Source of the DNA: an uncultured Chloroflexota bacterium
GTDB taxonomy: Bacteria > Chloroflexota > Dehalococcoidia > GIF9 > AB-539-J10
DNA: 64,000 nucleotides
Direction of reading: 5' to 3'
NCBI GenBank assembly: GCA_903884455.1
Contig: CAISEW010000041.1
Span: forward strand, 17,335-81,334
Both the position numbers and the translations under genes were made by a program. This document shows positions 16,137 to 36,107 of the stretch, one piece after another (the first letter of the stretch is position 1; each line of letters begins with the position of its first letter). The notes beneath the pieces are model-generated. The model was not told the DNA's origin and did not search any database. It was given only the letters and a program-made list of their open reading frames with translations.

Positions 16137-16177
16137 GACAAAACCTCTTTGTCTCTTTAGAACACCTGTGCCATAAT
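16137..16177 (+). promoter_or_regulatory. sigma70 promoter with LexA-like box, upstream of the terminase operon
   Basis: -35 TTGTCT (16149), 17-bp spacer, -10 CATAAT (16172); AGAAC-ACCT-GTGCC at 16159-16172; 26/35 ungapped identity to 27414-27448. Confidence 0.65.
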
Positions 16178-16222
16178 TTAGCTTCGCTAAATGGGTAATA
16201 AGGGTTCAATAAGGAAAGTAGA

Positions 16223-16369
16223 TTGAGTTTGAAGCTATTGCCGGCGGCTCTTCAGAGGCAAGATTACAACCTGGCAGCTCATGTTCTCGTCTATGGCTTG
16301 GTCAAAGCCTCGGTAGAAAACCCCAAAAAGTGTTATGGCAGCAAAAGGAAAAGGCCAGAGAAAGAGTAG
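16223..16369 (+). CDS. small hypothetical protein (48 aa), first gene of the terminase operon
   Basis: TTG start after AAGGAAAG; MSLKLLPAALQRQDYNLAAHVLVYGLVKASVENPKKCYGSKRKRPEKE*; overlaps the next gene; below the ORF-track cutoff. Confidence 0.5.
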   Translation: MSLKLLPAALQRQDYNLAAHVLVYGLVKASVENPKKCYGSKRKRPEKE

Positions 16370-16691
16370 CCCACGGGGTTTCTATAGCCGGGCCTTGGAC
16401 GAGGCAGAAAAGCTCGAGCTGGAAGAAGCTTCTCATGTCGAAGGAATCGACGAGGAGATTGCCCTTCTCAGAGTAAAGCTCAGGGAACTTCTGGAAGAGC
16501 AGCCAGAGCGAATCGACCTGCACTTCGAGGCTGCCAATATCATAGCCCGGCTGGTAAGAACCCGATATCAAATTACCAAAGAGCAAAAGAAGTCCCTCAA
16601 GGAAGCCATCCAGAAAGTCTTGACCGAAGTCGCTATGCCCCTGGGGGTTGGGGTGGGCGGAAAAATCCTAAGCACTAAATCCCGAAATTAA
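16335..16691 (+). CDS. putative terminase small subunit
   Basis: Basic N-terminus, then GFYS..L...E....IDEEIALLR helical pattern; directly upstream of TerL. Confidence 0.6.
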   Translation: MAAKGKGQRKSSPRGFYSRALDEAEKLELEEASHVEGIDEEIALLRVKLRELLEEQPERIDLHFEAANIIARLVRTRYQITKEQKKSLKEAIQKVLTEVAMPLGVGVGGKILSTKSRN

Positions 16692-16759
16692 TAGTCAGTA
16701 GTCAGTAGATTCCTCTACTGGCTACTGGATTCTGTATTCTTGTTACTACCACTATTTTT
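16688..16759. repeat. heptamer-built palindromic element (AGTAGTC/AGAATTC...CTACTG), copy 1
   Basis: taatagtcagtagtcagtag...ctactggattctgtattcttgttactacc; near-identical inverted copy at 21371-21455; relatives at 31405-31480 and 32686-32746. Confidence 0.75.
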
Positions 16760-18161
16760 ATGGAACTAAGACCTTATCAAATGGAAGTAGCGCGGGCGGC
16801 TATGGACTCTATCCAGAAGGGAATGGGACTGACCTTTTCTGTGGAGATTGCTAGGCAAGGCGGCAAAAACGAGCTTTCAGCGCATCTGGAAATTCTGCTG
16901 TTAACGCTCTATATGGCTAAGGGAGGCAATCTTATAAAGTGCTCCCCGACCTTTAAGCCTCAAACCATTATATCTATAGAAAGGTTAAAGCAGAGGCTGG
17001 ATGATTTCGGTTTTGCCGGCATTTATCGTCTCCAGATGGGCTATATTGTTCAGCTCGGCAACGCTAAAGCCATCTTTCTATCGGCTGAGGGCTCGTCTTC
17101 AGTGGTGGGACACACCCGCTGACATACTTCTGGAGATTGATGAATCGCAAGATATTAGCAAGGAAAAGTACACCAGGGAATTCCGCCCCATGGGTTCCGC
17201 TACCAACGTGACTACGATTCTTTATGGCACTACCTGGGATGATAGCACCTTGCTGGAAGAGGTAAAGCAGGCTAATCTGGAACTGGAAAGAGAGGACGGC
17301 ATTAAGCGCCACTTTAGATATGATTGGCAGGAGGTAGGCCGGTACAATCCTGACTATGTCAAGTTCGTCCAGGCGGAGCGGCAAAGACTGGGTGAAGAGC
17401 ATCCCCTGTTCAGGACTCAATATGCTTTATTACCTATCACCCATGGCGGGGGCTTCCTATCACGGCAACAGATAGCTCTGGTGCTGGGAGAACACCACAG
17501 GCAATCGCAGCCTGAGGGGAAGAGGACTTATATTGCTGGTGTAGATTTGGCCGGAGAACATGAGCCGGAAATGACAGGGGAAGACGCTCCTGACAATAAT
17601 AGGGGAAAAGGATGTGATTCCACAGTAATCACCATTGCCGAGGTGGATGCCCGCCTGCCAAGCCTTGGCGGGCAGGCCACCAATCCATCACAGCCACTGT
17701 TGAAAGTTGTGGAGCAATACCGGTGGACGGGAACGCCCCATAGCCAACTTTTTACCCAGATGACGGATATCCTTAAGAACGTCTGGAACTGCCGCAGGAT
17801 AGTGGTGGACGCCACCGGCATTGGTCAGCCTGTAGCTAGCTTTCTCAGAAAGGAACTGGGAAGCCGGATCATCCCATTTGTCATTACCTCCAAAAGCAAA
17901 TCCGACATGGGCTTTGAGCTATTGTCCTTTATCAATTCCGGGAGGCTTAAACTCTACAAGCAGGATGGCTCCAGGGAGTATAAGGAGACCCTGTTTGAGC
18001 TAGAAAGAGCCAGGGTGCAATATCGCCCCAACCAAACGATGAACTTTTATGTTGACCCTCAAGAGGGGCATGATGATCTTCTCGTGAGTCTGGCTCTGGT
18101 GATCCAGGCCGCTAAAGGTCTTAGCCCCCGGGGAGCCAAAGGTTGGCTCCGGGAAAGCTAG
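16760..18161 (+). CDS. terL: terminase large subunit (one apparent extra base at about 17115-17117)
   Basis: LRPYQ adenine motif, ARQGGKN Walker A, LLEIDE Walker B, YGTT coupling motif, RNase H-like nuclease IAGVDLA..DATGIG..HDDLL; removing one C from ACCCGCT joins the two ORFs (GHT-ADILLEIDE). Confidence 0.85.
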
Positions 18162-18186
18162 GCAGGGGTCGGGCTTGCCCCCGGCT

Positions 18187-19365
18187 TCATTCCAATTTAG
18201 GCAAGTCTTTGCCTAGCTCAGCCAGGGATTCAATCCTCTTCTTAGTTTCTTCTAATTGTCCCTTATGTTCATGGGCAAACTGCGTAGCTTGCTCGTAAAA
18301 CTCTTTTATCCTGGGCACAAAGGCTAACTGGGATAATATCAAGGTAACGTCGATGTAGTGCTTTTCTCCGGGAAAATCGCCGCCGCGAATCAGGGCGGTG
18401 GGTGCCAGTTCCTTGATGTAATCGCTAATGTTCTTGACCATGTCCATATTCAGATCTTTTTCCGGACCAGATATGATATATATAGCTTTGCCGGCATCCT
18501 TAGGGCTACAAGTAAGGGAAAGGTCAGAGATGGTGGCGTCTAGGGCTTGTGTCCCCCTGAAGCTTTCCAGAGCTTTGTCGCGGAAAGTCTTCTTCCTTAT
18601 CTCCCAGGGAAAACGGAATGAAGGAAGCTCAGTTCTCCCCAGGCCAATGGTGGTCCATCCCTCTAGGCTGGCAATTATGTCCCCGGCGTCTATCGTCCGC
18701 GAACCTACGTATTTGGCCTTGGTTACCTCACCGGCGCACATTAAATCATAGAAGGGCTCGGCAATCATCCTGTTTATTATATCTATGTTACTAACGAGAC
18801 TGGCATCTTTTCTCACATACCTCTGGTTATCCGCGAGAAAAACGGCATCCACTAAGTCATAAGTGGATTTCAGGCAAGTGGCGGTGTTATATGTGCTCCT
18901 GGACTCTGTGGTCTGCTCGTGCTCAAAAGGCAAAACTATCAGGGCATAAACTGGCTTGCCAATATATCTATCCTTAACTGCCTTGGCTATTATGGGTAGC
19001 GCTCCCGACCCTGTGCCGCCGGCAGCGCCAGCCATGAGAAGAAAACCATGTGTCTCGTAAAACTGTGAACTAGCTTTCACGGCATCCAGTACCTTATCAC
19101 CGTCCTCCTTAGCCAATTGAGCTCCTAGCTCGTTTATCTTGCCTACCCCGTGTCCCAGGGTCTGGCGCAAGCCCAGGAGCACCCGGTGCGTGTAGTCGTT
19201 CTTGATAAACCTTAGTCCGGTCAAATCAGCCTGATCTGTATTCACGGCAATGACGACGGGGGCTATGGTGGCCTTGCGCTGAGCATGCGCCTTGAGATTT
19301 AGCCTGGCAAAGTGGTCAGCAATCCGGCATCCACACTGCCCCAGTCCAATAACTGTTAGCTTCAT
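18187..19365 (-). CDS. tubulin/FtsZ superfamily GTPase, CetZ-like
   Basis: MKLTVIGLGQCG, AVNTDQADL, GHGVG..NELGA, AGGTGSG, CAGEV..IDAGDII; closely parallels archaeal CetZ and lacks the FtsZ C-terminal linker/peptide. Confidence 0.85.
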   Translation of the reverse strand: MKLTVIGLGQCGCRIADHFARLNLKAHAQRKATIAPVVIAVNTDQADLTGLRFIKNDYTHRVLLGLRQTLGHGVGKINELGAQLAKEDGDKVLDAVKASSQFYETHGFLLMAGAAGGTGSGALPIIAKAVKDRYIGKPVYALIVLPFEHEQTTESRSTYNTATCLKSTYDLVDAVFLADNQRYVRKDASLVSNIDIINRMIAEPFYDLMCAGEVTKAKYVGSRTIDAGDIIASLEGWTTIGLGRTELPSFRFPWEIRKKTFRDKALESFRGTQALDATISDLSLTCSPKDAGKAIYIISGPEKDLNMDMVKNISDYIKELAPTALIRGGDFPGEKHYIDVTLILSQLAFVPRIKEFYEQATQFAHEHKGQLEETKKRIESLAELGKDLPKLE

Positions 19366-19407
19366 TTTTCCCTCCTTCTTTCTTTACCGTTGTTTACCCT
19401 CTTGTTG

Positions 19408-19558
19408 GTCATTGCGAGCGGAGCGAATGCGGAGCGCGGCAATCTCCTTCCCCCGTAGCCCCTCCGAGATTGCTTCGTCGCCCCGATGAATCGAGGCTCC
19501 TCGCAATGACAAAGGGGAGGGTATTGCTTCGGCTGACGGAGTCAGCCTCGCAATGACA
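19408..19558. repeat. cluster of 3 TGTCATTGCGA..GCAATC palindromic elements
   Basis: Copies at 19408-19446 (+), 19466-19511 (-), 19523-19558 (-). Confidence 0.9.
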
Positions 19559-19589
19559 GGAAGGGACCGTGCCTGGCAATGGCGCTCCT

Positions 19590-21152
19590 TTAGTAGTAGT
19601 AATGTGTTCTTCTCCTTATTACGAAAAAGTAAACCAGGGCGCCGATGAGCACCACTATTGCGACTATGCTGGCAATGAATACCCATAGGGGCAGGAGTCC
19701 AGCATGTAAGGAACGGGCTGCGGTCCAGTTGCCTGCGTTCTCTGCTCTATCTACGGCTTGCACAATCCAGTAGTAGGTGCCATAAGGCAGGGCTTCTGTC
19801 GCATTCAAGGTATAGTTCGTTCCGACTATGTCCGGAACTGAAACTATGGGGTCAGCAAATCCTTCAGTGGTGATGTTGGCACTGGTCGCTATCTGCAGGC
19901 TATAGCGAACTCCACTGGGATCGGATACCGCCGACCATTCAAATGTCGGCCTCACCTTGCCTATGAATCCCACGCGGCTTCCGTCGGCTGGCGATTTGAG
20001 TTCCGGCACAGGTGGAGGGACTGATTCCATGGTGAAGTTGGCGGTGGCGTTGTTCCCGGCAGTATCGCCGGCTGTTACCGGGCGCTCGCCGTGTTGACTT
20101 TCAGGCACGGCAAAACTTGCCTCAAAGTTGCCGTTGTCGTTGGTTTCGGCTGTCGCTTTCTGGCTACCATCGTACTTTATGGACACATCTTCGGTGGCGG
20201 CAAATCCGCGACCGGTGACGGTCAGGTTTGTGCCCACGTGTCCTTCGTCAGGAGACAGCACGATGCCAGGCTCTATCTTGAAGCTGAGTGCAGTGATGGC
20301 GGCTTTTGGAGTCGATTCTCCGTAGGCAGTCACGTTATACGTGCCTTTGGGCATTTCGGGCACCTCGAAGCTTTTTTCCCAGTAACCTTCGTCGTCAGCA
20401 TCAACCCTGATTTCTGTCCCCACTTCCTCTCCTGCAAATAATATCCTGATGTACCTGTCGTTAGCATAAAATCCGTTGCCTGTCATAGTTATGTTGTCGC
20501 CTACGGTGCCCGATGATTTATCCAGGCTTATCCCCGGCGTTACTTCGAAGGTGGCATCCTTGACTTGATAGAAGCTGCTGCTGGCACCCTGGGCGTCTAT
20601 TTTATGGTTTCCCGTGGTGGAAGGAGGAATTTGGAAACTCCGCTGCCAATTGCCCGTGGCATTCGCCGTGATATTCCCTGGTATCGGTGCATAGCCGGTG
20701 CTATTGAGGTAATACCTCAGCTCGATGCCTGTTTCATTCTTGGCAAATCCATGGCCTTGCACGGTAACATTAGTGCCCACAGGACCTTTGGCAGGACTTA
20801 TTGTCAGCCCCGGCTTCACGGTAAAGTTTTCCGTAGCTTGAGGGGTAGTGTCTATATCAGCACGCACTTCGTGTGCGCCTTTGCAGCTTTCGGGAACGGT
20901 GAAGGTGACATTGAAGCTTCCCGTACTGGTGGTCTGGACATCTATCATCCAGTCCCCGGCATAGTAAATATCAACCCACTTACGAGCCGTAAAGTTATAG
21001 CCATAGACGGTAACCTCTGTTCCGGGCACTCCGTCACCGGGGTCGAGCGTGATAGAAGGTCCTATGCCATCGGCTTGTGCAGGCGTAGCCGGCAGGGCCA
21101 TAGCTACAAGGCAAACGATGAAAACAACCAGTAACCGAGATAGCACACGCAT
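19590..21152 (-). CDS. surface protein with Ig-like (IPT/TIG-type) repeats and C-terminal TM anchor
   Basis: Signal peptide (AQA); four G-x-x-G-T-x-V-T-V-x-G-x-x-F repeats; FN3-like GTYYWIVQAVD; TM helix then RRR. Confidence 0.8.
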   Translation of the reverse strand: MRVLSRLLVVFIVCLVAMALPATPAQADGIGPSITLDPGDGVPGTEVTVYGYNFTARKWVDIYYAGDWMIDVQTTSTGSFNVTFTVPESCKGAHEVRADIDTTPQATENFTVKPGLTISPAKGPVGTNVTVQGHGFAKNETGIELRYYLNSTGYAPIPGNITANATGNWQRSFQIPPSTTGNHKIDAQGASSSFYQVKDATFEVTPGISLDKSSGTVGDNITMTGNGFYANDRYIRILFAGEEVGTEIRVDADDEGYWEKSFEVPEMPKGTYNVTAYGESTPKAAITALSFKIEPGIVLSPDEGHVGTNLTVTGRGFAATEDVSIKYDGSQKATAETNDNGNFEASFAVPESQHGERPVTAGDTAGNNATANFTMESVPPPVPELKSPADGSRVGFIGKVRPTFEWSAVSDPSGVRYSLQIATSANITTEGFADPIVSVPDIVGTNYTLNATEALPYGTYYWIVQAVDRAENAGNWTAARSLHAGLLPLWVFIASIVAIVVLIGALVYFFVIRRRTHYYY

Positions 21153-21234
21153 TTAACTCACCTCCCTTTTGCTATTATAAACGAAAATGACCAGAAAAAG
21201 TAAGTAGTCTTGACTATTTTGGGACAAATTTGTT

Positions 21235-21319
21235 GAGATTGCTTCGGCTGATTTCATCAGCCTCGCAATGACAGGAAGGGAATGTCATTGCGAGCACCTG
21301 AAAGGTGCGTGGCAATCCC
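21235..21319. repeat. pair of TGTCATTGCGA..GCAATC elements
   Basis: 21235-21273 (-) and 21283-21319 (+). Confidence 0.9.
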
Positions 21320-21370
21320 CACAGTTAAATTCCAAAATCCAAACTCCAAACAAATCCCTTCAAAATGCAA

Positions 21371-21455
21371 AAATAGCGGTAGTAACAAGAATACAGAATC
21401 CAGTAGGGAAATCTTCTGAATACTGAATTCTGACTACTGGCTACTGACTATTACT
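21371..21455. repeat. heptamer-built palindromic element, inverted copy of 16688-16759
   Basis: Reverse complement shares taatagtcagtag.cagtag and ctactggattctgtattcttgttactacc.ctattt with copy 1. Confidence 0.75.
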
Positions 21456-23013
21456 AGTAGTAGTATCTTCTCCTTATTACCAAAGCGCGAATCAAAGCGC
21501 CGAGAAGCACCGCTATTGCCACTATGATGAGAATGAATGCCCACATAGGCAAGAGTCCAGCACGGAAAGAGTGAGCCGCAGTCCAGCCTCTTTCGTTCCC
21601 TGCGCCGTCTACGGCTTGCACAATCCAGTAGTAAGTGCCATCAGGCAGGGCATCTGTCGCATTCAGGGTGTAGTTCGTCCCGACTATGTCCGCAACTGAA
21701 ACTATGGGGTGAGCGAATTCTCCGGTGGTGGTGACGTTGGCACTGGTTGCTATCTGCAGGCTATAGTGAACTCCACTGTCATCGGATACTGCTGACCAAC
21801 TGAACGTCGGCGTCACCTTGCCCATGAGTCCCGCCCAACCTCCGTTGGATGGTGAAATGAGTGTTGGTATGTCCGGAGGATGTGATTCCATGATGAGGAT
21901 AGCAGTGGCATTATTCCCCCCAACATCCGTGGCTATTATTTGGCGCTCACCATGTGGGCTCTCAGGCACGACAAAGATTGCCTCAAAGCTGCCTGTGTCG
22001 TTGGTCGTGGCTGTTGCTTTCTGGTTACCATCGTACATTATGACCACATCTTTGTTGGCGGCGAATCCATGGCCCGTGACGGTCAAGTTCATGCCCACGT
22101 ATCCTTCGTCGGGGGGCAACACGATGTCCGGCTCTATCTTGAAGCTGAGCTCGCTGATATCTTCTTTCTTAGTCCATTCTCCCTCGGCGGCCACGCTATA
22201 CGTGCCTGCGGGCATTTCGGGCACCTCGAAGCTTCCCTCCCAGTTACCTTGAGAATCGGCTTTGATGCCTGTGACCACTGCCTCCCCATCAAACAATATC
22301 TGGATGTTCTTTTCATAAGCCACAAATCTGCTGCCCGTCATGGTTATTGCATCGCCCATGCTGCCCCATGGTTTATCTAGGCTTACCTCTGACGTTACTC
22401 TAAAAATGGCATCTTGGACCTCATAAAACTGGCTCTCAGCACCCTGGGCATCTATCTTATGTTCTCCCTTGGTGGAGGGGGGAATTGAGAAACTCGTCTC
22501 CCAACTGCCCGTGGCATTGGCTACTATACGCCTTTGTATCGTTTGGTAGTTGTCATTGAGGTAATACATCAACTCGATGCCCTGTTCATTCTGGGCAAAG
22601 CCCTGTCCTGTCACGGTAACATTAGTGCCCACAGGACCTTCGGCAAGACTTATTGTCAACCCCGGCTTCACGGCGAAGTAAGTATCTACTCTGACAGTCC
22701 CTATGTAGGTCCCTACCACAGCGAGTAATTTGTGGTCTCCCTTACAGCTTTCAGGGATGGTGAGGTGGATTGTGAAATCTCCACTGCCATCGGTCTGGCC
22801 TGTGGCTACGTGGGTCTCGTCATAATAGATGTCCACATACTTGCCGTCATCAAAGTACTGGCCAGTGACGATGATCTCTGTTCCGGGGGCTCCTGAGCCA
22901 GGGGAGAGCTGGATGGAAGGTCCTCCACACTGAGCCTGTGCGGGCACAGCTGGCAGGGTCATAGTGACAAGGCAGACGACGAGAACGATGACCAATCGAG
23001 ATAGTAAGCGCAT
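21454..23013 (-). CDS. tandem paralogue of the Ig-repeat surface protein
   Basis: Same architecture and long near-identical stretches (e.g. DIVGTNYTLNAT, YYWIVQAVD) as 19590..21152. Confidence 0.8.
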   Translation of the reverse strand: MRLLSRLVIVLVVCLVTMTLPAVPAQAQCGGPSIQLSPGSGAPGTEIIVTGQYFDDGKYVDIYYDETHVATGQTDGSGDFTIHLTIPESCKGDHKLLAVVGTYIGTVRVDTYFAVKPGLTISLAEGPVGTNVTVTGQGFAQNEQGIELMYYLNDNYQTIQRRIVANATGSWETSFSIPPSTKGEHKIDAQGAESQFYEVQDAIFRVTSEVSLDKPWGSMGDAITMTGSRFVAYEKNIQILFDGEAVVTGIKADSQGNWEGSFEVPEMPAGTYSVAAEGEWTKKEDISELSFKIEPDIVLPPDEGYVGMNLTVTGHGFAANKDVVIMYDGNQKATATTNDTGSFEAIFVVPESPHGERQIIATDVGGNNATAILIMESHPPDIPTLISPSNGGWAGLMGKVTPTFSWSAVSDDSGVHYSLQIATSANVTTTGEFAHPIVSVADIVGTNYTLNATDALPDGTYYWIVQAVDGAGNERGWTAAHSFRAGLLPMWAFILIIVAIAVLLGALIRALVIRRRYYY

Positions 23014-23093
23014 TTGACTATTCTTTCGTTATTATAACCGAAAAGTATACCAGAAAGTAAAGCGGGCTACCCCTGCCACTATGCTTTTCTATA

Positions 23094-23182
23094 TGTCATT
23101 GCGAGTCCCGATTTATCGGGACGTGGCAATCCCTGCCCCTCCGAGATTGCTTCGGCTGACTAAAGTCAGCCTCGCAATGACA
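23094..23182. repeat. pair of TGTCATTGCGA..GCAATC elements
   Basis: 23094-23132 (+) and 23143-23182 (-). Confidence 0.9.
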
Positions 23183-23209
23183 AATGGGAATACACTGAGC
23201 ATTTGTGGA

Positions 23210-23241
23210 AAAAGGGAGGGGCGGCTTTCGCCGCCCCTCTT
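23210..23241 (-). terminator. putative intrinsic terminator of the S-layer gene
   Basis: GAGGGGCGG stem with short loop; CCTTTT follows on the minus strand. Confidence 0.6.
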
Positions 23242-23290
23242 GGAAATCACCTTTACCTCTCCCTCGAAGAGAGGGTTAGGTGGGGTGTGC

Positions 23291-26767: not shown

Positions 26768-27206
26768 TATTTCCTCCTTTATAGGTATCCAACTTATCTT
26801 CACTCTCGCCCGAGGTCGACCCCTCAGGGCTCGAGTCATTGGAAACGTTTTTTCAGTAAACCTAGTTTTAAGCCTGCCTCATTTCAGGCTGCCCTTTTTG
26901 AGATTGCGGAGCTTGTTCCGAGTGAAACAAGGAATCTCGCTCCTCGCAATAGCTTCTTGCCCGGGCCAGGCATTGTTCTCTTCCCCTCGACTCCTCGCAA
27001 TGGCGATTCGCTTCGGGACTTTGCCATAGGCGTCACCTCCTTTCCATTTTATTGAGTAATGCCATTCTGAGGAGCCCCGATTCATCGGAGCTGGCTCAGA
27101 ATGACCGGCAAATGTCATCTAACAATATTCAATTATTAAAGTTCCAACAAAATCAAATTTCTCGCCAAAAGCCATAGTAATAGGCTTTAGGCCTACCTAA
27201 CCTTCT

Positions 27207-27459: not shown

Positions 27460-27464
27460 CTATT

Positions 27465-27848
27465 ATGGAAAATGGATTGCTCTGGGATTTGTTGCCCGAG
27501 GAATTCCCCTACGAAGATAAAGGCTGTGAGCTCTTTTCCTCCTGTCTTAACTGCCCCTTTCCTGATTGTCTTGAAGAGGAGCCCTGGGGGAAGGAGAGAT
27601 TCTTAAAGCGCAGGCGAGCCGGGAGAATGCTGGAGTTGAAGCGGGAAGGGAAAAGCGTTAAGGAGATTGCCCGCATATTTGAGGTGAGCCCGAGAACGGT
27701 ACAGAGATGGTTGAAGGCGGTGGAAGCAGCTACCCCCTCTGTCGTTGCGAGAAGCCGAGATTCCTCGTTTCACTCGGAACCTGCTCCGCAATCCCATGGG
27801 GCTGTTGACGATGGAGATTGCCACGCACCTTTCAGGTGCTCGCAATGA
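27465..27848 (+). CDS. Cys-rich HTH regulator (sigma70 region 4-like HTH); C-terminus extended by repeat elements
   Basis: C-x5-CxxCP-x3-C, then GKSVKEIARIFEVSPRTVQRWL; residues after about 27740 and the stop codon come from palindromic elements. Confidence 0.75.
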   Translation: MENGLLWDLLPEEFPYEDKGCELFSSCLNCPFPDCLEEEPWGKERFLKRRRAGRMLELKREGKSVKEIARIFEVSPRTVQRWLKAVEAATPSVVARSRDSSFHSEPAPQSHGAVDDGDCHAPFRCSQ

Positions 27849-27927
27849 CACTCCCTTCATGTCGTTGCGAGGCTGATTTCGTCAGCCGAAGCAATCTTGT
27901 GGAGGACAGCTAAAGGAGGCTTAAGAG

Positions 27928-29454
27928 ATGACTGATTTTACCCCATCCCAACTAGCCCGCATGGACACCCAACGCCTGGCTAATTACCGTGCTAACCTGG
28001 ACTTTTACCAGGGCAATCACTGGCCCACGCAGTCACGTCACCGCCAGCTCGTCTTTAATTACGCCAAGGTCTCCATTGACAAGGTCACCAGCTTCCTTAT
28101 GCCGGGGCTGGGCTTTGCCTGCTACCCCAGCGGCGCCCCCTTGTCATTGCGAGGAGCGCAGCGACGAAGCAATCTCGAAAGTGAAGAGGCTCGGGTGAGA
28201 AAGGCCGAGCAGCTCCTTCGCCAGGTCTATGAGCAAAACAACCTCCAGCAGCTTGATTACGAGACGGAGATTGACACCGCCATCTTGGGCGACGGTTGCT
28301 ATAAGGTCATCTGGGATACTGGCGAGAAGCGAGTCCGTATCACCGCCCCTGATGTCTCAGGCATCTATGCCTGGTGGCTGGGAGACGATGCGTCACGAGT
28401 GTGGAGAGTCGCTTCACGCTACACCCTCACCCAGGACGAAATCCAGATGCTTTATGGTGATGTCATTGCGAGCACAGCGAAGCAATCTCAAGGGATTGCC
28501 ACGTCGCCCCGATTCATCGGAGCTCCTCGCAATGACACCCCTCTGTCATTGCGAGGCACGCCAGTGCCGAAGCAATCCCAAGGAAAGGACAGAGTCGTGG
28601 TAACCGAGCTCTGGACGGCTAAGGACTTTGAGCTTTACCTGGATAACGACCTTATACAGTCCAAGCCCAACCCCTACGGCTTCATCCCCTTTATTATCTT
28701 CCCCAACATCAAGCAGCCCAAGAAGTTCTGGGGAGAGTCGGACATTCCCATCCTTATGCAGCCTCAGCGGGAGCTTAATAGAGCCCTGAGCCAGTTATCC
28801 CGCATCCTGGAGCTTTCTGGCAATCCCATCGCCGTTCTCGAAAACATCGCCTCAGCCGAGGACATCAAGGTCCAGCCCGGCGCCCTGTGGACGATACCGG
28901 AGGACGCTAAGGCATATCTTCTGGACTTACTGCAAGGCGGTGGAGTCAGGCTTCATGTCGATTACATCGAGTTGCTATACCGCTCGTTGCACGACATCTC
29001 CGAGCTTCCAAAGGCCGCCTGGGGAGGCGCTGAGAGAGACCTCTCAGGCTCAGCTATGAGGATTGAGCTCGGTAGCCTTATCCAGAAGGTAGTCAGGAAA
29101 CGCACCATCAGGATGAACGTGTATCACCAGCGAAACGACATGATATTGAAGCTCGCTGAGAGATATATGGACGAGAACTTTGAGGGAGTAAACCACAGAG
29201 TAGTCTGGGGCCCTATCTTGCCACAGGATGCAGATAGGCAAGCCCAGACCGAGCAGCTTTTGGTCCAGGCGGGAGTCCACTCACGAAGAACCGCTATAGA
29301 CGAAATGGGAATCCAGGACCCCGATGAGGAGTTTAACAGGTGGCTAGAGGAGAGGGAGAAAATCCTGGAAATGAACAGGGAGTTTAGGGCAGCGTCCACT
29401 CGTGGCGGAGCGAGAGAGAGAGCGGTAGCCGCAGAGATGGAAGTGCCTGAGTAA
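27928..29454 (+). CDS. phage portal protein (SPP1 gp6-like) with in-frame repeat insertions
   Basis: LDFYQGNHW, LVFNYAK, ILGDG, NPYGFIPF, WGESD, LSGSA, VWGPILPQD; AAGGAGG RBS. Confidence 0.85.
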   Translation: MTDFTPSQLARMDTQRLANYRANLDFYQGNHWPTQSRHRQLVFNYAKVSIDKVTSFLMPGLGFACYPSGAPLSLRGAQRRSNLESEEARVRKAEQLLRQVYEQNNLQQLDYETEIDTAILGDGCYKVIWDTGEKRVRITAPDVSGIYAWWLGDDASRVWRVASRYTLTQDEIQMLYGDVIASTAKQSQGIATSPRFIGAPRNDTPLSLRGTPVPKQSQGKDRVVVTELWTAKDFELYLDNDLIQSKPNPYGFIPFIIFPNIKQPKKFWGESDIPILMQPQRELNRALSQLSRILELSGNPIAVLENIASAEDIKVQPGALWTIPEDAKAYLLDLLQGGGVRLHVDYIELLYRSLHDISELPKAAWGGAERDLSGSAMRIELGSLIQKVVRKRTIRMNVYHQRNDMILKLAERYMDENFEGVNHRVVWGPILPQDADRQAQTEQLLVQAGVHSRRTAIDEMGIQDPDEEFNRWLEEREKILEMNREFRAASTRGGARERAVAAEMEVPE

Positions 29455-29530
29455 TAACTCAACCCCTTGTCATTGCGAGCCCTGAGCTCGGCAAAGGGCG
29501 AAGCAATCTCAAGAGGAATAGGAGAAATGT

Positions 29531-30043
29531 ATGGAAAACGAAACTCAAGAAACCTTGGAAACTCAAGAACCCGGGAATACTGCCCCAGACCCTGAGGACT
29601 TATCAATCATCAAGGCCGAGCTTGAGGAGGGGAGGAAGGCGAAGGCCGAAATCGAGGCAGCGTTAGCCGACAGAGCTAAACGTATCACCGAGCTGGAGGC
29701 CTCGCTAAATGTAGTCTCTCAGGCCAGCGAGGCGGCGGCAGCCGAGCTCGCCGCAGTGAAGGGCGCTAGCTCGAAGGCCGTCTCTAAATACCTCGAGGCC
29801 GCCAGAGCTCTTAATTCCACCATCCCCAAAGACGTCATCTCTGGCCAGACTATTGAGGAGATAGACGCCTCTGTGGAGAAGGCGAAGGCCATCGCCAATG
29901 CCGTCAGGGCTAACCTCGAAGCTCAGGCCAAAGAGGCTAAGGTCCCGGCAGGAGCACCCACCAGAAGTGAGATATCCCTTGAGGGACTTTCCCCCCGGGA
30001 GAAGATCGCCGCTGGAATAATGTCATTGCGAGGAACGCAGTGA
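29531..30043 (+). CDS. putative capsid scaffolding protein
   Basis: Acidic Ala/Glu-rich coiled coil ending LSPREKIAAG; position between portal and capsid; last codons and stop come from a repeat element. Confidence 0.7.
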   Translation: MENETQETLETQEPGNTAPDPEDLSIIKAELEEGRKAKAEIEAALADRAKRITELEASLNVVSQASEAAAAELAAVKGASSKAVSKYLEAARALNSTIPKDVISGQTIEEIDASVEKAKAIANAVRANLEAQAKEAKVPAGAPTRSEISLEGLSPREKIAAGIMSLRGTQ

Positions 30044-30074
30044 CGAAGCAAACTCAAAAAGGAGGAACAAGCTA

Positions 30075-30305: not shown

Positions 30306-30325
30306 AAAGGAGGAACTAGCTAGAC

Positions 30326-31398
30326 ATGACAATATCTTTAGCAGAAGCCAGTAAACTCTCGAGCGATATCCTGCTTAAAGGTATCATCGAGACAATAATC
30401 AAGGACAGCCCCATCTTAGAGAGGCTGCCCTTCATTCAAATCGTCGGCAATAGCCTTAAATACAACAGGGAGAAGACCTTGCCGACCGTTGGCTGGTATG
30501 CCCCGGTAACCGGTACCTGGACTCAGTCCGAGCCGGCTTTTGAGCAGTGCTCGGCCAGCCTGGGCGTCCTCGGCGGAGACGCCGACGTGGACAACTTTCT
30601 TAAGGCCACCCGGAGCAACATCCAGGACCTCGAGGCCGCCGTCATCGAGCAGAAGGCCAAGGCTCTCAGGCACGAGTTCGAGAACACCTTCCTTAACGGA
30701 GACTCGGGCGTCGACGCCAACCAGCCCGATGGCCTCTATAAGACCATGAAAGGCACCGCCTGGGCAGCCAGCACCGCCTATACATTAGGCCAATTTGTCG
30801 TGCCCACGGCCGGCCTCGAAAACGGATTCCGTTACGAGTGCACCACCGCCGGCACCTCAGGATCCTCAGCGCCTACCTGGCCCACCACGGAAGGGGCCAC
30901 GGTAGCCGACAACACCGCCGTCTGGACCTGCCGTTACGGCAGCCATCAGGGCTCAGGAGCCAACGGAGCCACCCTTTCCTTGACCAGCCTGGATAAGCTT
31001 ATTGACCTGGTCAGAGGCGGCAAGCCCGACTTACTCTTAATGAGCCGCCGGTCCCGCAGGAAGATTGTGACCCTGGCCAGAGCTGCGGGCACCAATCTAC
31101 TTATCGGAGAGGGCGCGCTCGGCCAGGTCGTTGAGTACTTTAACGGCATCCCTGTGGCCATCTCCGACTGGGTAAAGGATAACTACACCGTCGGCACGTC
31201 GTCCGACTGCTCTGCCATCTTCGCCTTCCAGATGGGTGAGGGGGGAGTCTGTGGACTTACAGCCCTGAGATGATTCAGGTTGAGCGTCTTGGCTCACTGG
31301 AGACTAAGGACGCCACCAGAACCAGGGTCAAGTGGTATGTATCACTGGCTCTCTTTTCCGTAGTGAAGGCTGCCATGCTGACGGGGGTGAGAGACTAA
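30326..31398 (+). CDS. HK97-fold major capsid protein (one apparent missing base at about 31260)
   Basis: IIETIIKDSPILERLPF, YNREKTLP, LGGDADVDNFL, FNGIPVAISDW; adding one C at CTTACAGC gives GLTSPEMIQVERLGSLETKDATRTRVKWYVSLALFSVVKAAMLTGVRD* ending at 31398. Confidence 0.85.
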
Positions 31399-31404
31399 CA
31401 GAAA

Positions 31405-31480
31405 GCGGGAGTCAGGAGAAAGCAGTAGTCAGTAGTCAGAATTCAGAATCTACTGGCTCCTGACTCCTGTCTACTGACCA
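31405..31480. repeat. heptamer-built palindromic element
   Basis: agcagtagtcagtagtcagaattcagaatctactggctcctgactcctgtctactgac. Confidence 0.7.
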
Positions 31481-31488
31481 GGTGAACT

Positions 31489-32079
31489 ATGAACCTAACC
31501 CAAATGAGAGCCAGGGTCCGACAGGACCTCCAGGATACTGATAGCCAGAACTACTGCTGGACGGACGACGAAATCGAAGCAGCTATCCAGAGAGTAGCAT
31601 TGGAGTATTCTCTCCATGCTCCCATCGAGCAGCAGACCGATATCGCCACCACCTACGGAAGCACCGAGCTCGATATATCAGGACTGCAAGGAGCCCTTAG
31701 AATCGAGTCCGTCGAGTTTCCCATCGGCAAGACCCCGAAATATATACAGAGGTTTGAGTACTGGGGCACCAGCCTGCACATGGAAGACCAGGGAAACGGC
31801 CAGAACGCCCGGGTGAGATGGCTAAAGAAGCACACGCTCACAACCGAGTCCACGACCATCCCAACCGAGCACGACGAAATCATTATCCTGGGGGCCACAG
31901 GCTACCTGGCTATGTCAGCGTCAGCCTATACAGTGGACAGAGCCACTATCGCTGGGCGTTACGGCACCACGAGCTACAAGGCCTGGGGTCAAGAACGCCT
32001 TGACCGCTACGACAAGCAGCTCAAGGCCGTTAGCCGTTCTAACCAAGTTGTTCGGAAGGAGCTCTATACAGATGATTGA
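31489..32079 (+). CDS. putative head-tail adaptor
   Basis: MNLTQMRARVRQDLQD..WTDDEIEAAI adaptor-like N-terminus; directly after capsid. Confidence 0.65.
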   Translation: MNLTQMRARVRQDLQDTDSQNYCWTDDEIEAAIQRVALEYSLHAPIEQQTDIATTYGSTELDISGLQGALRIESVEFPIGKTPKYIQRFEYWGTSLHMEDQGNGQNARVRWLKKHTLTTESTTIPTEHDEIIILGATGYLAMSASAYTVDRATIAGRYGTTSYKAWGQERLDRYDKQLKAVSRSNQVVRKELYTDD

Positions 32080-32281
32080 AAAAGGCATCCTACGAAGCTA
32101 CGACCCTATTAACCACAGAGCCAGCGTTCAGCTCATGGGCTCTTTGACCACCTATTTTGACAACGTCCGAGTTGCCAGGAATATCCCTTCCCTTGAAATG
32201 GTACTCGGCCGACACGTGTTTATAGCCATTCCCGAGAACAACCCCGGGAACGCCGCTATCATCGCCATTTTTGACCCGTAG
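32072..32281 (+). CDS. small beta-rich (OB-fold-like) putative spike/baseplate protein
   Basis: ATG at 32072 after AAGGAG; MIEKGILRSYDPINHRASVQL..VLGRHVFI pattern recalls the gp5/gpV N-terminal OB fold. Confidence 0.45.
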   Translation: MIEKGILRSYDPINHRASVQLMGSLTTYFDNVRVARNIPSLEMVLGRHVFIAIPENNPGNAAIIAIFDP

Positions 32282-32290
32282 CACCAAACT

Positions 32291-32327
32291 ACCCCTCTTA
32301 AATTAAGAGGGGATAGGGGAGTTATGA
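32291..32327. repeat. CCCCTCTTAA..TTAAGAGGGG palindromic element
   Basis: acccctcttaaattaagaggggataggggagttatga; relatives at 60265-60400. Confidence 0.65.
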
Positions 32328-32346
32328 CAGCGAAAAGGAGGGAAAC

Positions 32347-32685
32347 ATGAGTAAACTAACAGAAGCACTTACAAAGGAGAAAACCAAGGAGGGCCTCCCC
32401 AAAGAAGCCTTCGCCATCGTGGAAGACCCTGATGACCCCAGCACCTGGAAGCTTCCCCATCACACCAAAGCTATACTGAGAGCTCTTAAAGGCCGTCTCG
32501 ATATCGAAAAGACTGTGGACTGGGATAGAATGCCAGCAGCCATCGCCGCTCTCAGCAGAGGCGGATATCGGGGGGAGAGGGTCCAAGCCTCAGAGGAGGA
32601 CATCATCAAGGCCGCCCGTCACTTAGCGGCCCACTATGAAAAGGCCGACAAGTCCGTCCCCGACACCCTGGGCGCCCTCATTTGA
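32347..32685 (+). CDS. phage-type hypothetical protein
   Basis: AFAIVEDPDDPSTWKLPHH motif of the kind seen in phage head-region proteins; strong RBS. Confidence 0.55.
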   Translation: MSKLTEALTKEKTKEGLPKEAFAIVEDPDDPSTWKLPHHTKAILRALKGRLDIEKTVDWDRMPAAIAALSRGGYRGERVQASEEDIIKAARHLAAHYEKADKSVPDTLGALI

Positions 32686-32746
32686 GCAGAAGACAGTAGT
32701 CAGAATCCAGAATCTACTGTCTACTGACTCCTGACTACTGATTACT
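32686..32746. repeat. heptamer-built palindromic element
   Basis: agacagtagtcagaatccagaatctactgtctactgactcctgactactg. Confidence 0.7.
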
Positions 32747-32757
32747 ACGGAGGAACC

Positions 32758-33936
32758 ATGGCTAAATCAGGACTCAAGCATATAGACGTCGGAGCAGAGC
32801 TCACCAAAACCGAGTGGGAGAGTGAGGAGAGCCACGAGGTCGTTCACGGCACCAGCTTCTCATCCTCGCCCGTCGAACGTCAGCTCTTTTATCGGGACGA
32901 CGAGCACAAGTGGTACGTCTACAACGGCTCAACCTGGGTGTGGCTCGGTGGAGGCGGAGTAAGCACATTCCTTCAGCTTACAGACACGCCGTCCAGCTAC
33001 TCGGGCCAGGGCGGGAAAGTCGCCAAAGTAAAGTCCTCAGAGGACGGCCTCGAATTCGGCCAGGTCACTGGCATGCAGGAGCACGGCAACGAGTATCACG
33101 ACCCCGACTTCGCCGAAGTATCCCACACGCACTCCGACCTGTCCCCCGCCCACAAGGACCAAGCAACTGGCGTTCATGGAGTAGGGGGGAGCGCAGTCGA
33201 AAGTGCCTCTGGCTCTCAAGCCAAAGTCGACGCCCACAAAGACCTCCCCACCGGCGTTCACGGCGTGGGGGTGGGAACAATCGCCAAAGTGGCGGACATA
33301 GCCGTCGATAGCAACCTGTCTTCTGCGGCTCAGGACGCAATCAGTAAGAGGCATACACAGAATACCGACACCGAAATCAGGGATACCGATAACGATACCC
33401 AAGTTGACGTCGAGCAGTCTGCAGATGAAGACCAAGTCCGCATGAAGGTCGCAGGCACTGAGGCTTTTTTGCTCTATAACAATGGGGTATTAACTCTAAA
33501 CAAACAAAGTGGATTTAGAGCCTATAGGACAGCAACCCAGAGTGTAAGCCCTATGACATGGACTAAGGTTCAATACAACACCGAGGAATACGATATTCAG
33601 GGTGAATATGACCATGTAACAAATTTCAGGTTTACGGCTACAAAAGCTGGAAGATACTTAGTAACAGCTATATGTGGACTTGACAACCTATCTGATGGGA
33701 AAGCCGTAACACTCGTAGTAGTTAGGAATGGTGATACAACTACTTGGGTGGGAGCTAGGCGATTAGTCACCGCAACCACTGGTGCTGCTGGAGGCCTTTG
33801 CTTCTCTGGCTCAGGCACAATGAACTTAGCAGCTAACGACTACATTGAAATCTACATACTTCACACTGACACCGCAGCAAAAAACACCCCAGCAGAGGCA
33901 ATGTCTGTGTCGGTTGAGGTAATTAAGGTAGCCTAA
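32758..33936 (+). CDS. tail fibre-like protein with C1q/TNF-like C-terminal head
   Basis: FLQLTDTPSSYSGQ and HKD..TGVHGVG fibre repeats; C-terminal FRAY..Q....WTKVQYNTEEYD..F.F.ATKAGRYLV. Confidence 0.7.
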   Translation: MAKSGLKHIDVGAELTKTEWESEESHEVVHGTSFSSSPVERQLFYRDDEHKWYVYNGSTWVWLGGGGVSTFLQLTDTPSSYSGQGGKVAKVKSSEDGLEFGQVTGMQEHGNEYHDPDFAEVSHTHSDLSPAHKDQATGVHGVGGSAVESASGSQAKVDAHKDLPTGVHGVGVGTIAKVADIAVDSNLSSAAQDAISKRHTQNTDTEIRDTDNDTQVDVEQSADEDQVRMKVAGTEAFLLYNNGVLTLNKQSGFRAYRTATQSVSPMTWTKVQYNTEEYDIQGEYDHVTNFRFTATKAGRYLVTAICGLDNLSDGKAVTLVVVRNGDTTTWVGARRLVTATTGAAGGLCFSGSGTMNLAANDYIEIYILHTDTAAKNTPAEAMSVSVEVIKVA

Positions 33937-33943
33937 GACATCT

Positions 33944-36107
33944 ATGAAAACCTTAACCTCCACTCTGCTCGCAAGCCAGAAGAAAGCCAACCACCTCCCC
34001 TACGTCGAGGCTAAAGTCTATGACTATGAGGCGGGCATCAAGAGGCTATCCTGGACACGCATTTATGAAGGCAGCGAGCCCGACAACCATCACGGCATTG
34101 CCTTCGACGGCCAGGGCTCTATGCACCGCATCAGGAGCCAGGGCAACAATCTTTATTATCAGAAGCAGACGCTTCCTTTTGGTGTCCCGTCATCCTTCCC
34201 CCTTATCTTCCCCGTCTCCCTGGTCGACGGCCCAGCCCTTGACCAGTGGACGTTAATAGCGGAGGACTGCTACGGTCCCTGCGCTATCGCTGCCTATGGC
34301 AGCAAGGTCTATATCTTCTACAAACCCAACGAACCCAACAAACTCAACAAACTCTATAGTCATGACTACGGCCAGTCCTGGAATAATGCTCAGCTCGCAG
34401 CCTACGATGAGGTCGTTTCCCTGGCGGCGTGTTGGTGGAGGACAGGGAACAATGTCGTCTGCTTCGCTCTCAAAGGGAGCTATCCAGTCAAGATCAACGG
34501 CATAGTCTTAGACACCTCCGACCAGAGCACCAGCCAGCACGAATGGTACGACGCCACCCACCCTTTGTTGGACACCTATGGCATCGGAGCTACCTTTAAT
34601 CCTTTCTGGCCTGCTATCGAGATCATCTTCGCTGGCAGGGAGTCTGATTCCCCCTATAATCACTATGACCTTTTCCGTACCAAGTTTAGTTCATCATACA
34701 ACTTCCTGGCCCTGGAAAGCTTTCTCATGGCCCCCGATGGAGAGGGCATCACCTATGAATACCCCGACTGCCATTTACCCGCCGTAGCCTCCGGCGAAGG
34801 CGGGCCGGACTACGAGACTAACCGCATTGTCGCCGTCGAGAAGTTCATGGGGACGACCGCCTACACCCGCCCTATTACTTGCCACGTGGTAAAAGGAACA
34901 TACTGGTCCGATACCACTTTTACTGAGCCCAAGCCCCTCCCTGTCATTGCGAGCGGAGCGTGGCAATCTCCCTACGGGCTCAGAATCGCCAGCACCGCCG
35001 ATTATTGGTGGCTCTCCGAAGCCCGACGGAGTCTGGAGAGCCACCCGCCCCGCCGACTCGCCCCTCGACTTGACTGGCGATATTGTCTCCGTCACCTTAA
35101 CCCAATCACCCCAACAAACTCAAAGAACTCAAGGAACTCTCATTATCGAGCTCAACAACTCCAAGGGACAGTATGCCAACCCTGGCAGCGGAGTCCTTGC
35201 TTCTCTTCGCTTCCGCAGTGAAGTCGTCCTTAAGCTCGGCTATAAGACCTCTGTCGGGAACGAAGCTGTCGAAGTTGGGACTTACTGGATTGATTCCTGG
35301 GAGTACCAGTCCGTGTCATTGCGAGGCGAAAGCCGAAGCAATCTCAGCACTTTCACCCTCACCTGCCTGGACGGCTGGGGGCTCATGAACCGCTGGTCAG
35401 CTCGCTACCAGATGCGCTGGAACAAGGACGCCGTCAACCCCAAGTCCGTCTGGCAAATCCTCTATCAACTCTTAGCCAGGGTCGGCATCAAGCTCACCAA
35501 CACCCCACCCAAACCCCAGTCCTCCGCCATCAACAACTTCTATCCCGACTTCACCATTAACCCTGGCACCAAGGGGGATGCTGCTATCAGGAGGCTGCTT
35601 TCCTTCGTCCCCGACCAGCTCGTCTTCAGAGGCCAGGAAGCCTTCACCAAGAACCCTTTACCCGCCGAAGCCCCCTCTTACTCCTACGGCGTAGGCGCGG
35701 CCGCCCACCCCATCATCTCCGGCCGATACCAGGACGCCGTCACCGCTTCCCGGGCCCGTGCCATCGGCCAGGACGAAGATGCCAACCGCATCGTTAGAGA
35801 CGCCTTTGATTGGGATTTACTGAAGCTTGACATTGATATATTAGAACAAGACTATGACCCTAACCTTAGCGAGGAGGCCAGGGCCCAGGAGAGAGCCGAT
35901 GCCCTCCTAAGGGAGGCGTCATTGCGAGCGGAGCGTGGCAATCTCGTAGTCCCCACCAACGTCGGCCAAGAGCTCTTAGATGTCGTGGGGTTCACCGACG
36001 CCCGCTGCGGCGTCGACCAGGAGAACTACCGGGTCCAGGGGATTCGAACCCTCTACGACCGCCGTCAGGGACGATACGAGCAGGCTCTAACCTTGGGAGC
36101 ACCGTGA
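33944..36107 (+). CDS. large tail/baseplate-hub-like protein (one apparent extra base at about 35016)
   Basis: N-terminal propeller with Asp-box YSHDYGQSW; C-terminal hub-like region (LKLGY, ELLDVV..YRVQGI..Y..TLGAP); removing one C gives WWLSKPDGVWRA; three in-frame repeat inserts. Confidence 0.6.

Follow-up and report, generated by a model that had tools for sequence, protein, structure and literature searches.

A split, non-excising phage-derived locus of Dehalococcoidia as a candidate gene-transfer-agent-like system with a host-like terminase pair and an exchangeable head-tail cassette

What is a set of phage head, tail and packaging genes that carries no integrase, is divided in two by genes of its host and is found at the same chromosomal place in different genera? 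This question is raised by the stretch of DNA analyzed here, 64,000 nucleotides (hereafter the window) from an uncultured Chloroflexota bacterium (assembly GCA_903884455.1, contig CAISEW010000041.1, positions 17,335 to 81,334), in which such genes are located between 16.1 and 36.7 kb. The source genome comprises 1.56 Mb in 63 contigs, is 99.5% complete and contains a bacterial small-subunit rRNA; the Dehalococcoidia-type host named in the original prediction was corroborated. Based on gene content and gene order, the comparisons demonstrate a non-excising, split, phage-derived locus, the layout and position of which are shared by three families of the order. The reading favored here, at a probability of roughly 45%, is that of a candidate gene transfer agent (GTA)-like, chromosomally grounded and non-excising derivative of a Dehalococcoidia-specific, short-tailed phage lineage of HK97 type. 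The genes of the locus are listed below (window coordinates, strand, assignment; the supporting evidence, including family matches with their E-values, in brackets).

16335-16691, + strand: g118, small terminase-like partner of TerL, 118 amino acids (aa) (fixed place before TerL, complex model)
16760-17122, + strand: N-terminal piece of TerL with the Walker A stretch, ending at a premature TGA (17120-17122)
17115-17117, + strand: CCC run with one extra C that shifts the TerL frame (sequence)
about 17112-18161, + strand: remainder of TerL in another frame, with Walker B and nuclease domain (Terminase_6C, phrog_5909, alignment)
27465-27848, + strand: small DNA-binding protein of HTH_23 type, heading the head-tail operon (HTH_23 8.3e-10)
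27928-29454, + strand: portal protein, SPP1 type (SPP1_portal 1.9e-18, phrog_64 2.6e-26)
29531-30043, + strand: scaffold candidate, 170 aa (only its position between portal and capsid)
30326-31273, + strand: major capsid protein with HK97 fold (Phage_capsid 4.5e-11, phrog_212 9.6e-51)
31489-32079, + strand: head-tail adaptor candidate (SU10_adaptor 0.0011, below the Pfam cut-off, and position)
32347-32685, + strand: g112, conserved virion-module protein, 112 aa (phrog_19463 1.5e-05)
32758-33936, + strand: fibre with C1q/TNF-like tip, 392 aa (phrog_11660 5.3e-17, predicted fold)
33944-35221, + strand: g425, tail protein, 425 aa (conserved beside the hub gene, fused with the hub in locus L188)
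34947-36107, + strand: tail hub similar to gp27 and Mu gp44, 386 aa, homology from about 35019 (structure and profile matches)
36119-36673, - strand: g184, bordering the cassette (phrog_19074 6.1e-07)

The gene set proposed in the original prediction was found to be real: profile matches, predicted structures and a complex model support the TerS-like protein, TerL, portal, HK97 capsid, adaptor, C1q-tipped fibre and gp27-like hub, and the presence of an HK97-type capsid, a portal and a TerL with ATPase and nuclease domains places the locus with the HK97-fold Caudoviricetes. The phage-derived genes are all encoded on the + strand, in two groups that are separated by 9 kb of - strand genes. Families of integrases, repressors and replication proteins gave no match among the open reading frames (ORFs) of at least 100 aa within 16.1-36.7 kb, in agreement with the predicted lack of integrase and replication genes; the locus, split by core host genes, cannot excise as a unit, which had likewise been proposed. 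The locus, therefore, combines virion and packaging genes with a lack of integrase, excision and replication functions, as is typical of GTAs. The closest recombinase is a Xer-type protein at 43460, a conserved host neighbor that is 87% identical at the same place in genome G020. The only direct repeats found to bound the locus were dispersed elements (the REP-like and CAGTAG types described below), and among the Logan contigs of four runs the only excision or circular joints were repeat-element joints with short sides.

No Pfam or PHROG family matched g118. However, it is located directly upstream of TerL in every relative read, and in the complex model its conserved C-terminal helix (residues 84-105) is positioned on the N-terminal ATPase domain of TerL with a score of 0.64, the best of three controls reaching 0.01 (partner predicted local distance difference test value, pLDDT, at least 48; contact agreement between runs at least 63%). 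Of 80 solved complexes, 58 reached the mark applied to such models, as did 2 of 110 mismatched pairs; since TerS-TerL complexes are known, the pass may partly reflect likeness to solved structures. Because of the complex model and the fixed position before TerL, g118 is likely the small terminase. In the ESM Atlas it was related to unnamed Chloroflexota clusters, the terminase-small leads (below 0.8) not being used as evidence. The N-terminal basic stretch of g118 (residues 5-17) reads KGNQNARKHGFYS (RGNQ... or AGNQ... in two rows) in 8 of 13 aligned copies, six of the type A lineage introduced below and two chromosomal ones, with a K/R/S-rich replacement in four chromosomal copies of the window's genus and another stretch in G186; the difference could mean that the small terminase recognizes DNA differently. 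Elsewhere in the window's genome there is a remote paralogue of g118 (30% identity; L223, contig C55, 7492-7908), with a CAGTAG-type element just upstream and no TerL behind it.

TerL (16760-18161, + strand) matched Terminase_6C (8.6e-06) and phrog_5909 (1e-06). Its N-terminal piece corresponds, at 87-94% identity, to the first 119 residues of the TerL that G098, G004, G107 and G020 encode in a single frame, and the remainder, shifted by one base, sets in just ahead of the Walker B-like stretch. The stretches that we take to be the Walker A-like, Walker B-like and three acidic nuclease motifs of the family were conserved in TerLs from portal-less loci, in those of the window's layout (type B) and in those of the integrase-bearing sister form (type A). 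The extra C is kept in the Logan contig of the likely source run (0 of a depth of 9.5 left it out), but is missing from single contigs in runs of two other studies (53.4/53.4 and 44.6/44.6), and TerL is in a single frame in 7 of 7 relatives (G004, G020, G098, G102, G186, G188, G026); in consequence, the break is a genuine feature of this population, of recent origin and confined to the strain. The genome does not, accordingly, hold a complete intact gene set, whereas TerL is intact in G004, G020, G098, G102 and G107.

Within the head-tail cassette, the portal profile had a single phage portal match among the PDB sequences, gp45 of 9gb3 (4e-08), and the capsid had none at E ≤0.1. For the scaffold candidate no Pfam or PHROG family was matched; its gene was kept in 80 of 80 IMG/VR loci read, and the earlier label follows from its position between portal and capsid. 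The last 140 residues of the fibre are modeled as a C1q/TNF jelly roll (pLDDT 84-93; template modeling score 0.75-0.8 to C1q domains), by which the predicted C1q tip gained structural support. This tip domain also matches the tips of cyanophage short tail fibres; in G098 and G004, tblastn matches were restricted to residues 1-67 and 65-100 of the fibre, the tip not being conserved there. The hub matched the Mu gp44, gp27 and VgrG hubs at E 1e-7 to 1e-6, which sustains the proposed hub-like character, although the model itself is only moderate (mean pLDDT 58.9). Weak BNR leads for g425 in the ESM Atlas (below 0.9) were not used as evidence. Apart from this, the portal frame of L023 (G026, contig C12, 17387 onward) is open for 638 aa and continues in-frame into the scaffold region; this may represent a portal-scaffold fusion.

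The order was surveyed in 202 genomes (78 of high quality, 50 genera), in which genes were sought by tblastn with the window proteins, fast-evolving genes being under-counted by this procedure; all relatives are metagenome-assembled genomes (MAGs) of varying completeness, and absences carry less confidence than presences. The CetZ-like tubulin gene that adjoins TerL was present in 171 of 202 genomes (73/78 of high quality, 48/50 genera), TerL in 127 (62/78, 41/50 genera) and the portal in 70 (38/78, 26/50 genera), the capsid in 16 of 41 relatives. According to hand-compared lists, TerL accompanies the portal in 66 of the 70 portal-positive genomes, and 61 other genomes have TerL with no portal detected. 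Four other genomes of the window's genus, G004, G020, G098 and G107, have the split layout at the corresponding chromosomal position: after rarA-phoU-pit on the left (no rarA match in G098; the G020 contig starts inside g118) there follow g118-TerL, on the opposite strand cetZ-TIG-TIG-1182-aa, then HTH-portal-scaffold-capsid-adaptor-g112-(fibre)-g425-hub and g184, and on the right MBL-g228-pilD (the G107 stretch ends inside the scaffold gene, its right side being unread). The split order or its mirror image was found in other families, f2 (G039) and f3 (G026, G030), and the host genes g336 and g171 lie near the locus in G026, G030, G036, G029 and G186, as does rarA except in G026. In G188 (a single contig), G029, G036 and G137, g118-TerL stands tail-to-tail with cetZ and no portal is present; Phage_capsid and SPP1_portal gave no match at E ≤0.01 in G188, G036 and G137, and one unrelated capsid elsewhere in G029.

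Substitution rates were estimated according to Nei-Gojobori as synonymous divergence (dS) and dN/dS (omega) between the window and G098, G004 and G107 as well as the more distant G020. Versus the former three, the flanking host genes had a dS of 0.2-0.75 (omega 0.08-0.32), and g118, both TerL pieces, cetZ and the gene of the helix-turn-helix (HTH) protein were in the same range (dS 0.19-0.48, omega 0.07-0.22; g118 alone omega 0.12-0.17), whereas portal, scaffold, capsid, adaptor, g112, g425 and hub reached a dS of 0.67-1.46 (omega 0.08-0.37). The shift in dS is abrupt at both borders of the cassette, the portal start and the hub end, and holds versus G020, with values of 0.48-0.81 for the flanks, 0.57-0.82 for g118, TerL and HTH, and 0.75-1.92 for the cassette. 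Beyond the hub, g184 had a dS of 0.11-0.32 and an omega of 0.23-0.69 (dS 0.69 versus G020) and is retained in G101 and G110, both without the cassette; on these comparisons it is inherited like a host gene. All phage-derived genes are under purifying selection (omega 0.06-0.37; g112 alone 0.06-0.13). In the portal-less pair G029-G137 of one genus, omega was 0.04-0.08 for TerL and 0.07 for g118, at a dS of about 1.1, the same as for cetZ. According to these rates and the survey, TerS, TerL and HTH evolve like host genes and are kept by purifying selection across the order. The combination of vertical inheritance and low dN/dS that the original prediction had put forward as a sign of domestication was thus encountered in g118, TerL and HTH, with host-like dS and a single TerL clade for the genus (100*), but not in the cassette from portal to hub, with its three- to fourfold dS and interleaved tree; by these measures, domestication is supported for the packaging genes and not for the head-tail cassette.

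Where the cassette comes from can be seen in its relatives. A GTDB-wide scan yielded at least 577 portal relatives, the best 80 of which are nearly all from Dehalococcoidia or Chloroflexota, with one labeled Brocadiaceae and one 'uncultured bacterium'; in IMG/VR there were 415, the best 80 of which were read, all on contigs of 4-20 kb. Two layouts were distinguished. Type A is contiguous, compact and on one strand (tyrosine integrase, early genes, g118, TerL, portal and onward to the hub, with overlapping TerL and portal genes) and is exemplified by L188, with an integrase (phrog_1 4.9e-38) and an early-gene exonuclease (phrog_10477 1.7e-15), whereas type B is arranged as in the window, the HTH gene preceding the portal. 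Among 182 portal loci read, some of them duplicates, 108 were of type B, with the HTH gene 5' of the portal, 56 of type A and 18 undecided; for 80 loci of other species the numbers were 56, 19 and 5. In other species with at least 5 kb upstream, 19 of 27 type B loci had big/TIG genes on the opposite strand and none an integrase, while 4 of 9 type A loci had an integrase and none a big/TIG gene. Type A elements are also present elsewhere in genomes of the window's genus (G006 contig C1, G115 contig C26), and the same hosts commonly harbor related integrase-bearing phages whose TerL is 54-73% identical. Compared with the window, type A proteins are 66-74% (portal), 72-83% (capsid) and 68-70% (C-terminal part of TerL) identical. 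In G115 the DNA of the two copies, one of each type, is 89-94% identical beginning exactly at the portal start, whereas the upstream genes differ. Two side observations concern the type A lineage: solitary g118-TerL pairs, 68-80% identical to the window proteins, with no portal behind and no cetZ beside, occur in L212 (G107 contig C26, 9098-10815) and L213 (G108 contig C1, 9659-11376), and the 3.5-kb contig L084, which carries TerL and portal of type A, is assigned to a Brocadiaceae MAG, probably through a binning error.

The trees differ accordingly between the two parts of the locus. In the portal tree (FastTree, 97 rows; the other trees were short IQ-TREE searches) the two types need 13-14 changes, at least 7-9 of which are forced by starred branches, and in a subsample of 42 rows, picked after the first tree, a single type A clade was rejected by the approximately unbiased (AU) test (log-likelihood difference 839, p-AU 1e-05). 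The TerL tree (53 rows) needs only 2 context changes; the chromosomal TerLs of the genus form one clade of 7 (100*), and chromosomal TerLs group by host genus or family. A single type A clade was rejected here as well (p-AU 0.0007), and on this tree the context of TerL has therefore switched at least twice in the history of the order. The synteny, the rates and the trees together show the head-tail cassette to be optional and to be overwritten by recombination with related integrase-bearing temperate phages.

According to the favored GTA-like reading, the HTH gene would head an operon of portal, scaffold, capsid, adaptor, g112, C1q-tipped fibres, g425 and gp27-like hub, and a separate operon 10 kb upstream would provide the TerS-like protein and TerL, which would dock on the portal and fill the heads with DNA. 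Because nothing excises or replicates the locus, the filled heads would carry mainly chromosomal DNA, in the manner of a GTA. Particle release would proceed without a murein lysin: mraY is absent from this genome (99.5% complete), so that no murein lysin would be needed, which would explain the lack of a lysin gene. With TerL broken by the 1-base insertion, the strain at hand would produce at most empty particles, close relatives having the full intact set.

Several observations weigh against this reading. The frame break of TerL in this genome is repeated in a second assembly of the likely source run. Judged by the portal, the head-tail cassette is present in just 38 of 78 high-quality genomes, and it is dispensable, being cleanly missing from G101 (95% complete; pit-cetZ-TIGx3-1182aa-g184-MBL, with neither phage-derived segment) and reduced in G110, which has kept g118-TerL and lost cetZ and the cassette, to a g386-like remnant beside g184. 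The portals of type A and type B are interleaved on the tree. The cassette dS (0.67-1.92) is 3-4 times the host level, values above 1 being near saturation for the simple Nei-Gojobori estimate, and the cassette composition is phage-like (GC 0.55, AT skew +0.15, as in type A contigs; flanks GC 0.47-0.50 with an AT skew near zero or negative, TerL intermediate). As a consequence of the high dS and this composition, the low omega of the cassette may have been earned inside phages instead of the host. Patchy distribution (portal 70/202 genomes) and a phylogeny incongruent with the host, with orthologues in integrase-bearing contiguous elements, are what the original prediction had named as speaking against domestication, and for the head-tail part both were found. 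Of its GTA-like, domesticated system, the packaging genes, the recurring layout and the inability to excise stand; the patchy cassette with its high dS and interleaved portals, and the TerL broken here, do not fit.

The same observations are drawn upon by the alternative that survives best, a plain cryptic prophage remnant without a role for the host, whose frames are kept open by homologous recombination with infecting or resident relatives and which serves as an allele store for phages; we consider it rather unlikely, though a serious contender. It would account for the lost mobility genes, the deletion scars of G101 and G110, the frameshift, the exchange seen in G115 and the elevated cassette dS. 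Against it stands the terminase pair, which has a host-like dS and was not overwritten within the genus, is intact in 62 of 78 high-quality genomes and 41 of 50 genera, and has an omega of 0.04-0.22 (0.04-0.12 even between two portal-less genomes), so that the absence of selection expected of a cryptic prophage was not observed; moreover, all catalytic stretches of TerL are kept, and neutral remnants should not outlast family-level divergence.

Repeats constitute a further sign of decay to which the remnant explanation appeals. A repetitive extragenic palindromic (REP)-like element with 158 core motifs in the genome occurs 18 times between 19.4 and 35.9 kb of the window, about 10 times the genome mean; it litters the cassette and widens the intergenic gaps (73-283 nt in the window cassette versus 3-112 nt in L188). 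The density of its motifs is 0.239 per kb in type B modules (149 in 625 kb; 44 inside portals) and about 5 times lower, 0.051 per kb, in type A modules (16 in 313 kb; 2 inside portals); this difference points to a long residence of the grounded form and also counts in favor of the GTA-like reading. The portal of the window contains two in-frame insertions (aa 71-88 and 179-222) that are absent in G004 and G026 and present in G020, other copies lengthen the HTH and g425 frames, and the 3' end of the HTH gene runs into an element. Nevertheless, portal reading frames are open in nearly all genomes, even with such in-frame insertions; frames that stay open in spite of them speak for selection or for a frequent renewal of the cassette. 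Examples of the repeats are:

28130-28190, 28460-28580, 29456-29511, 30018-30066, 34930-34970 and 35918-35956: REP-like element, within 19395-40821
16689-16759, 21369-21453, 31399-31477 and 32685-32746: CAGTAG/CTACTG palindromic element, 23 core copies in the genome, 5 in the locus

The contigs of four sediment metagenomes pile up on the REP-like element at a depth of 315-1726 versus about 10-100 nearby, and it is thus shared by many organisms there. As to the second element, a stretch of 38 nt precedes TerL and recurs, inverted and with 97% identity, between both TIG genes; a common promoter of TerL and the TIG gene was considered and rejected, the stretch belonging to the dispersed palindrome with 23 genome copies, further ones being located near the TIG paralogue region on contig C3 and before the g118 paralogue on C55.

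In a bolder reading, the terminase pair has become a core, vertically inherited host pair of the order, joined tail-to-tail with the CetZ-like tubulin gene and under purifying selection even where neither portal nor capsid is detectable; it would have a cellular or anti-phage role of its own, and the cassette would be an exchangeable add-on by which the pair becomes a self-sufficient GTA-like system, with the surface proteins encoded between the two halves as linked receptors. On the present comparisons we regard this arrangement as unlikely, albeit worth stating. A role of the terminase alone could consist, for example, in loading host DNA into the procapsids of related infecting phages or in blocking these, and the fast-evolving surface proteins could be the particle receptors, kept in linkage with the fibre genes. 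A narrower proposal, to which we assign a still smaller chance, is that only the terminase pair is domesticated and acts on procapsids of related phages, packing host DNA (helper-dependent transduction) or sabotaging packaging (defence), the cassette being optional. It is favored by the 61 genomes with TerL and no detected portal, by G188, G036 and G137, in which TerS and TerL are intact with conserved motifs and no capsid or portal family was matched, by the host-like rates of the G029-G137 pair, by the abundance of related integrase-bearing phages in the same hosts and by the basic stretch of g118, which in four chromosomal copies of the genus differs from that in 8 of 9 other aligned copies. 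However, the capsid and portal search covered two families in four genomes, the losses of the cassette may be recent, and past selection could explain the low omega; in addition, we know of no system that works in this way without mobility of its own, which counts against the proposal. Finally, that the locus is an intact, inducible temperate prophage is already contradicted and of next to no probability: its full structural module is comparable to those of the integrase-bearing L174 and L188, but an integrase with attachment sites, lysogeny control, early and replication genes and a contiguous genome were not found, its two parts are separated by 9 kb of core host genes, which 171 of 202 genomes retain, it occupies the same place across genera and families, its TerL is broken, and the contigs of four runs contained no excision joints except repeat-borne ones.

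The host genes that separate the two halves had been described as 9 kb of envelope genes; the split is real, and its content proved to be more specific:

18187-19365, - strand: CetZ-like tubulin, core host gene, convergent with TerL (Tubulin 9.4e-33, CetZ_C 5.6e-20)
19590-21152 and 21454-23013, - strand: two paralogous TIG/Ig-domain surface proteins (TIG 2.5e-18 and 3.8e-15)
23291-26839, - strand: fast-evolving 1182-aa protein (no family match at the curated level)

CetZ is known as an archaeal cell-shape protein. In addition to the CetZ-like tubulin, a canonical FtsZ is encoded on another contig of the same genome, and a second CetZ-like paralogue (about 40% identical) adjoining rarA is frequent in other families. 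The accessible part of the text of PMC7203096 makes no mention of CetZ. The paralogy of the two TIG/Ig proteins was read from repeats D2-D4 and D7. Together with the gene of the 1182-aa protein (19590-26839) they are the fastest-evolving of the region, with 55-68% identity within the genus, a dS of 0.46-0.86 and an omega of 0.38-0.53 versus G098, G004 and G107, and an overall omega of 0.29-0.53 (TIG/Ig proteins 0.29-0.47; 1182-aa protein 0.44-0.53 at 55-58% identity); they may be surface-layer proteins and possible receptors.

The flanking context was as originally stated. On the left, pit encodes a PHO4-type phosphate transporter (15021-16031, + strand; PHO4 2.3e-92), and on the right follow a metallo-beta-lactamase (MBL) hydrolase (Lactamase_B 6e-24) and the type IV prepilin peptidase PilD (peptidase A24, 1.9e-35). 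The pit gene has no more than 39-44% identity with its positional counterparts in G004, G098, G101, G102, G107 and G110 (G020 being unreadable), while the phoU-like gene beside it is 80-91% identical; by sequence, pit looks like a replaced allele. A tRNA-His called by ARAGORN (39213-39300, 88 nt), considered as an attachment site, was treated as false, since it lies inside an ORF of tandem repeats; this gene (39103-40350, - strand) encodes an RCC1-repeat protein with seven 114-nt tandem repeats and has paralogues on contigs C29, C19, C16, C13 and C47.

Compared with known systems, the locus occupies an intermediate place. GTAs include the RcGTA type of Alphaproteobacteria, BaGTA, VSH-1, Dd1 and VTA. 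Like these, the locus comprises a phage-derived head, tail and terminase set without integrase and replication genes, is chromosomally fixed and distributed over more than one operon, and has packaging genes that are host-inherited under purifying selection. It differs from them in that only TerS, TerL and HTH act as host genes, the cassette being optional and exchanging with active phages, and in its short tail of adaptor and hub, without tube or tape measure. Deposited phages are remote, with at most 23% identity for the portal (17 records) and, for the capsid (283 records), about 31-33% in full-length alignments and up to 42% where 75% of the protein is aligned; because of these low identities the lineage is unrelated to the known GTAs. 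With cryptic recombining prophages of the Escherichia coli K-12 type the locus shares lost mobility genes, repeat insertions, a frameshift and allele exchange with phages; it is distinguished by a position and split layout kept across families of the order and by a terminase pair on which purifying selection has acted well beyond the usual lifetime of a cryptic prophage. The type A relatives (L188 and the elements of G006 and G115) have homologous structural and packaging genes, but possess a tyrosine integrase and early genes, are compactly arranged on one strand and have neither cetZ nor TIG genes as neighbors. Capsid-forming phage-inducible chromosomal islands (cf-PICIs) likewise encode a TerS, TerL, portal and capsid of their own while lacking a complete phage genome; the locus differs from them in having fibre and hub and in lacking the integrase, replication module and signs of helper-dependent excision of a phage satellite. 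IME1, as far as the accessible part of its description goes (10.64898/2026.09.15.751708), is an unrelated, tail-less element. In the literature on GTAs and prophages of Dehalococcoidia and on CetZ of Chloroflexi no description of the present findings was found.

Dehalococcoidia are abundant in sediments and aquifers and central to organohalide bioremediation; their genomes are tiny, gene flow among them is poorly understood, and to our knowledge no genetic tools exist for them. If the GTA-like reading is true, a chromosomally fixed particle system that recurs across the order would offer a candidate pathway by which these bacteria exchange genes and perhaps also a natural means of delivering DNA to them. 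An orphan terminase that persists in the absence of a capsid would represent an unusual takeover of a phage gene by the host. The locus would, moreover, apparently have been caught between phage and host, its packaging genes being host-like and its head-tail genes traded, and would thereby bear on the origins of GTAs.

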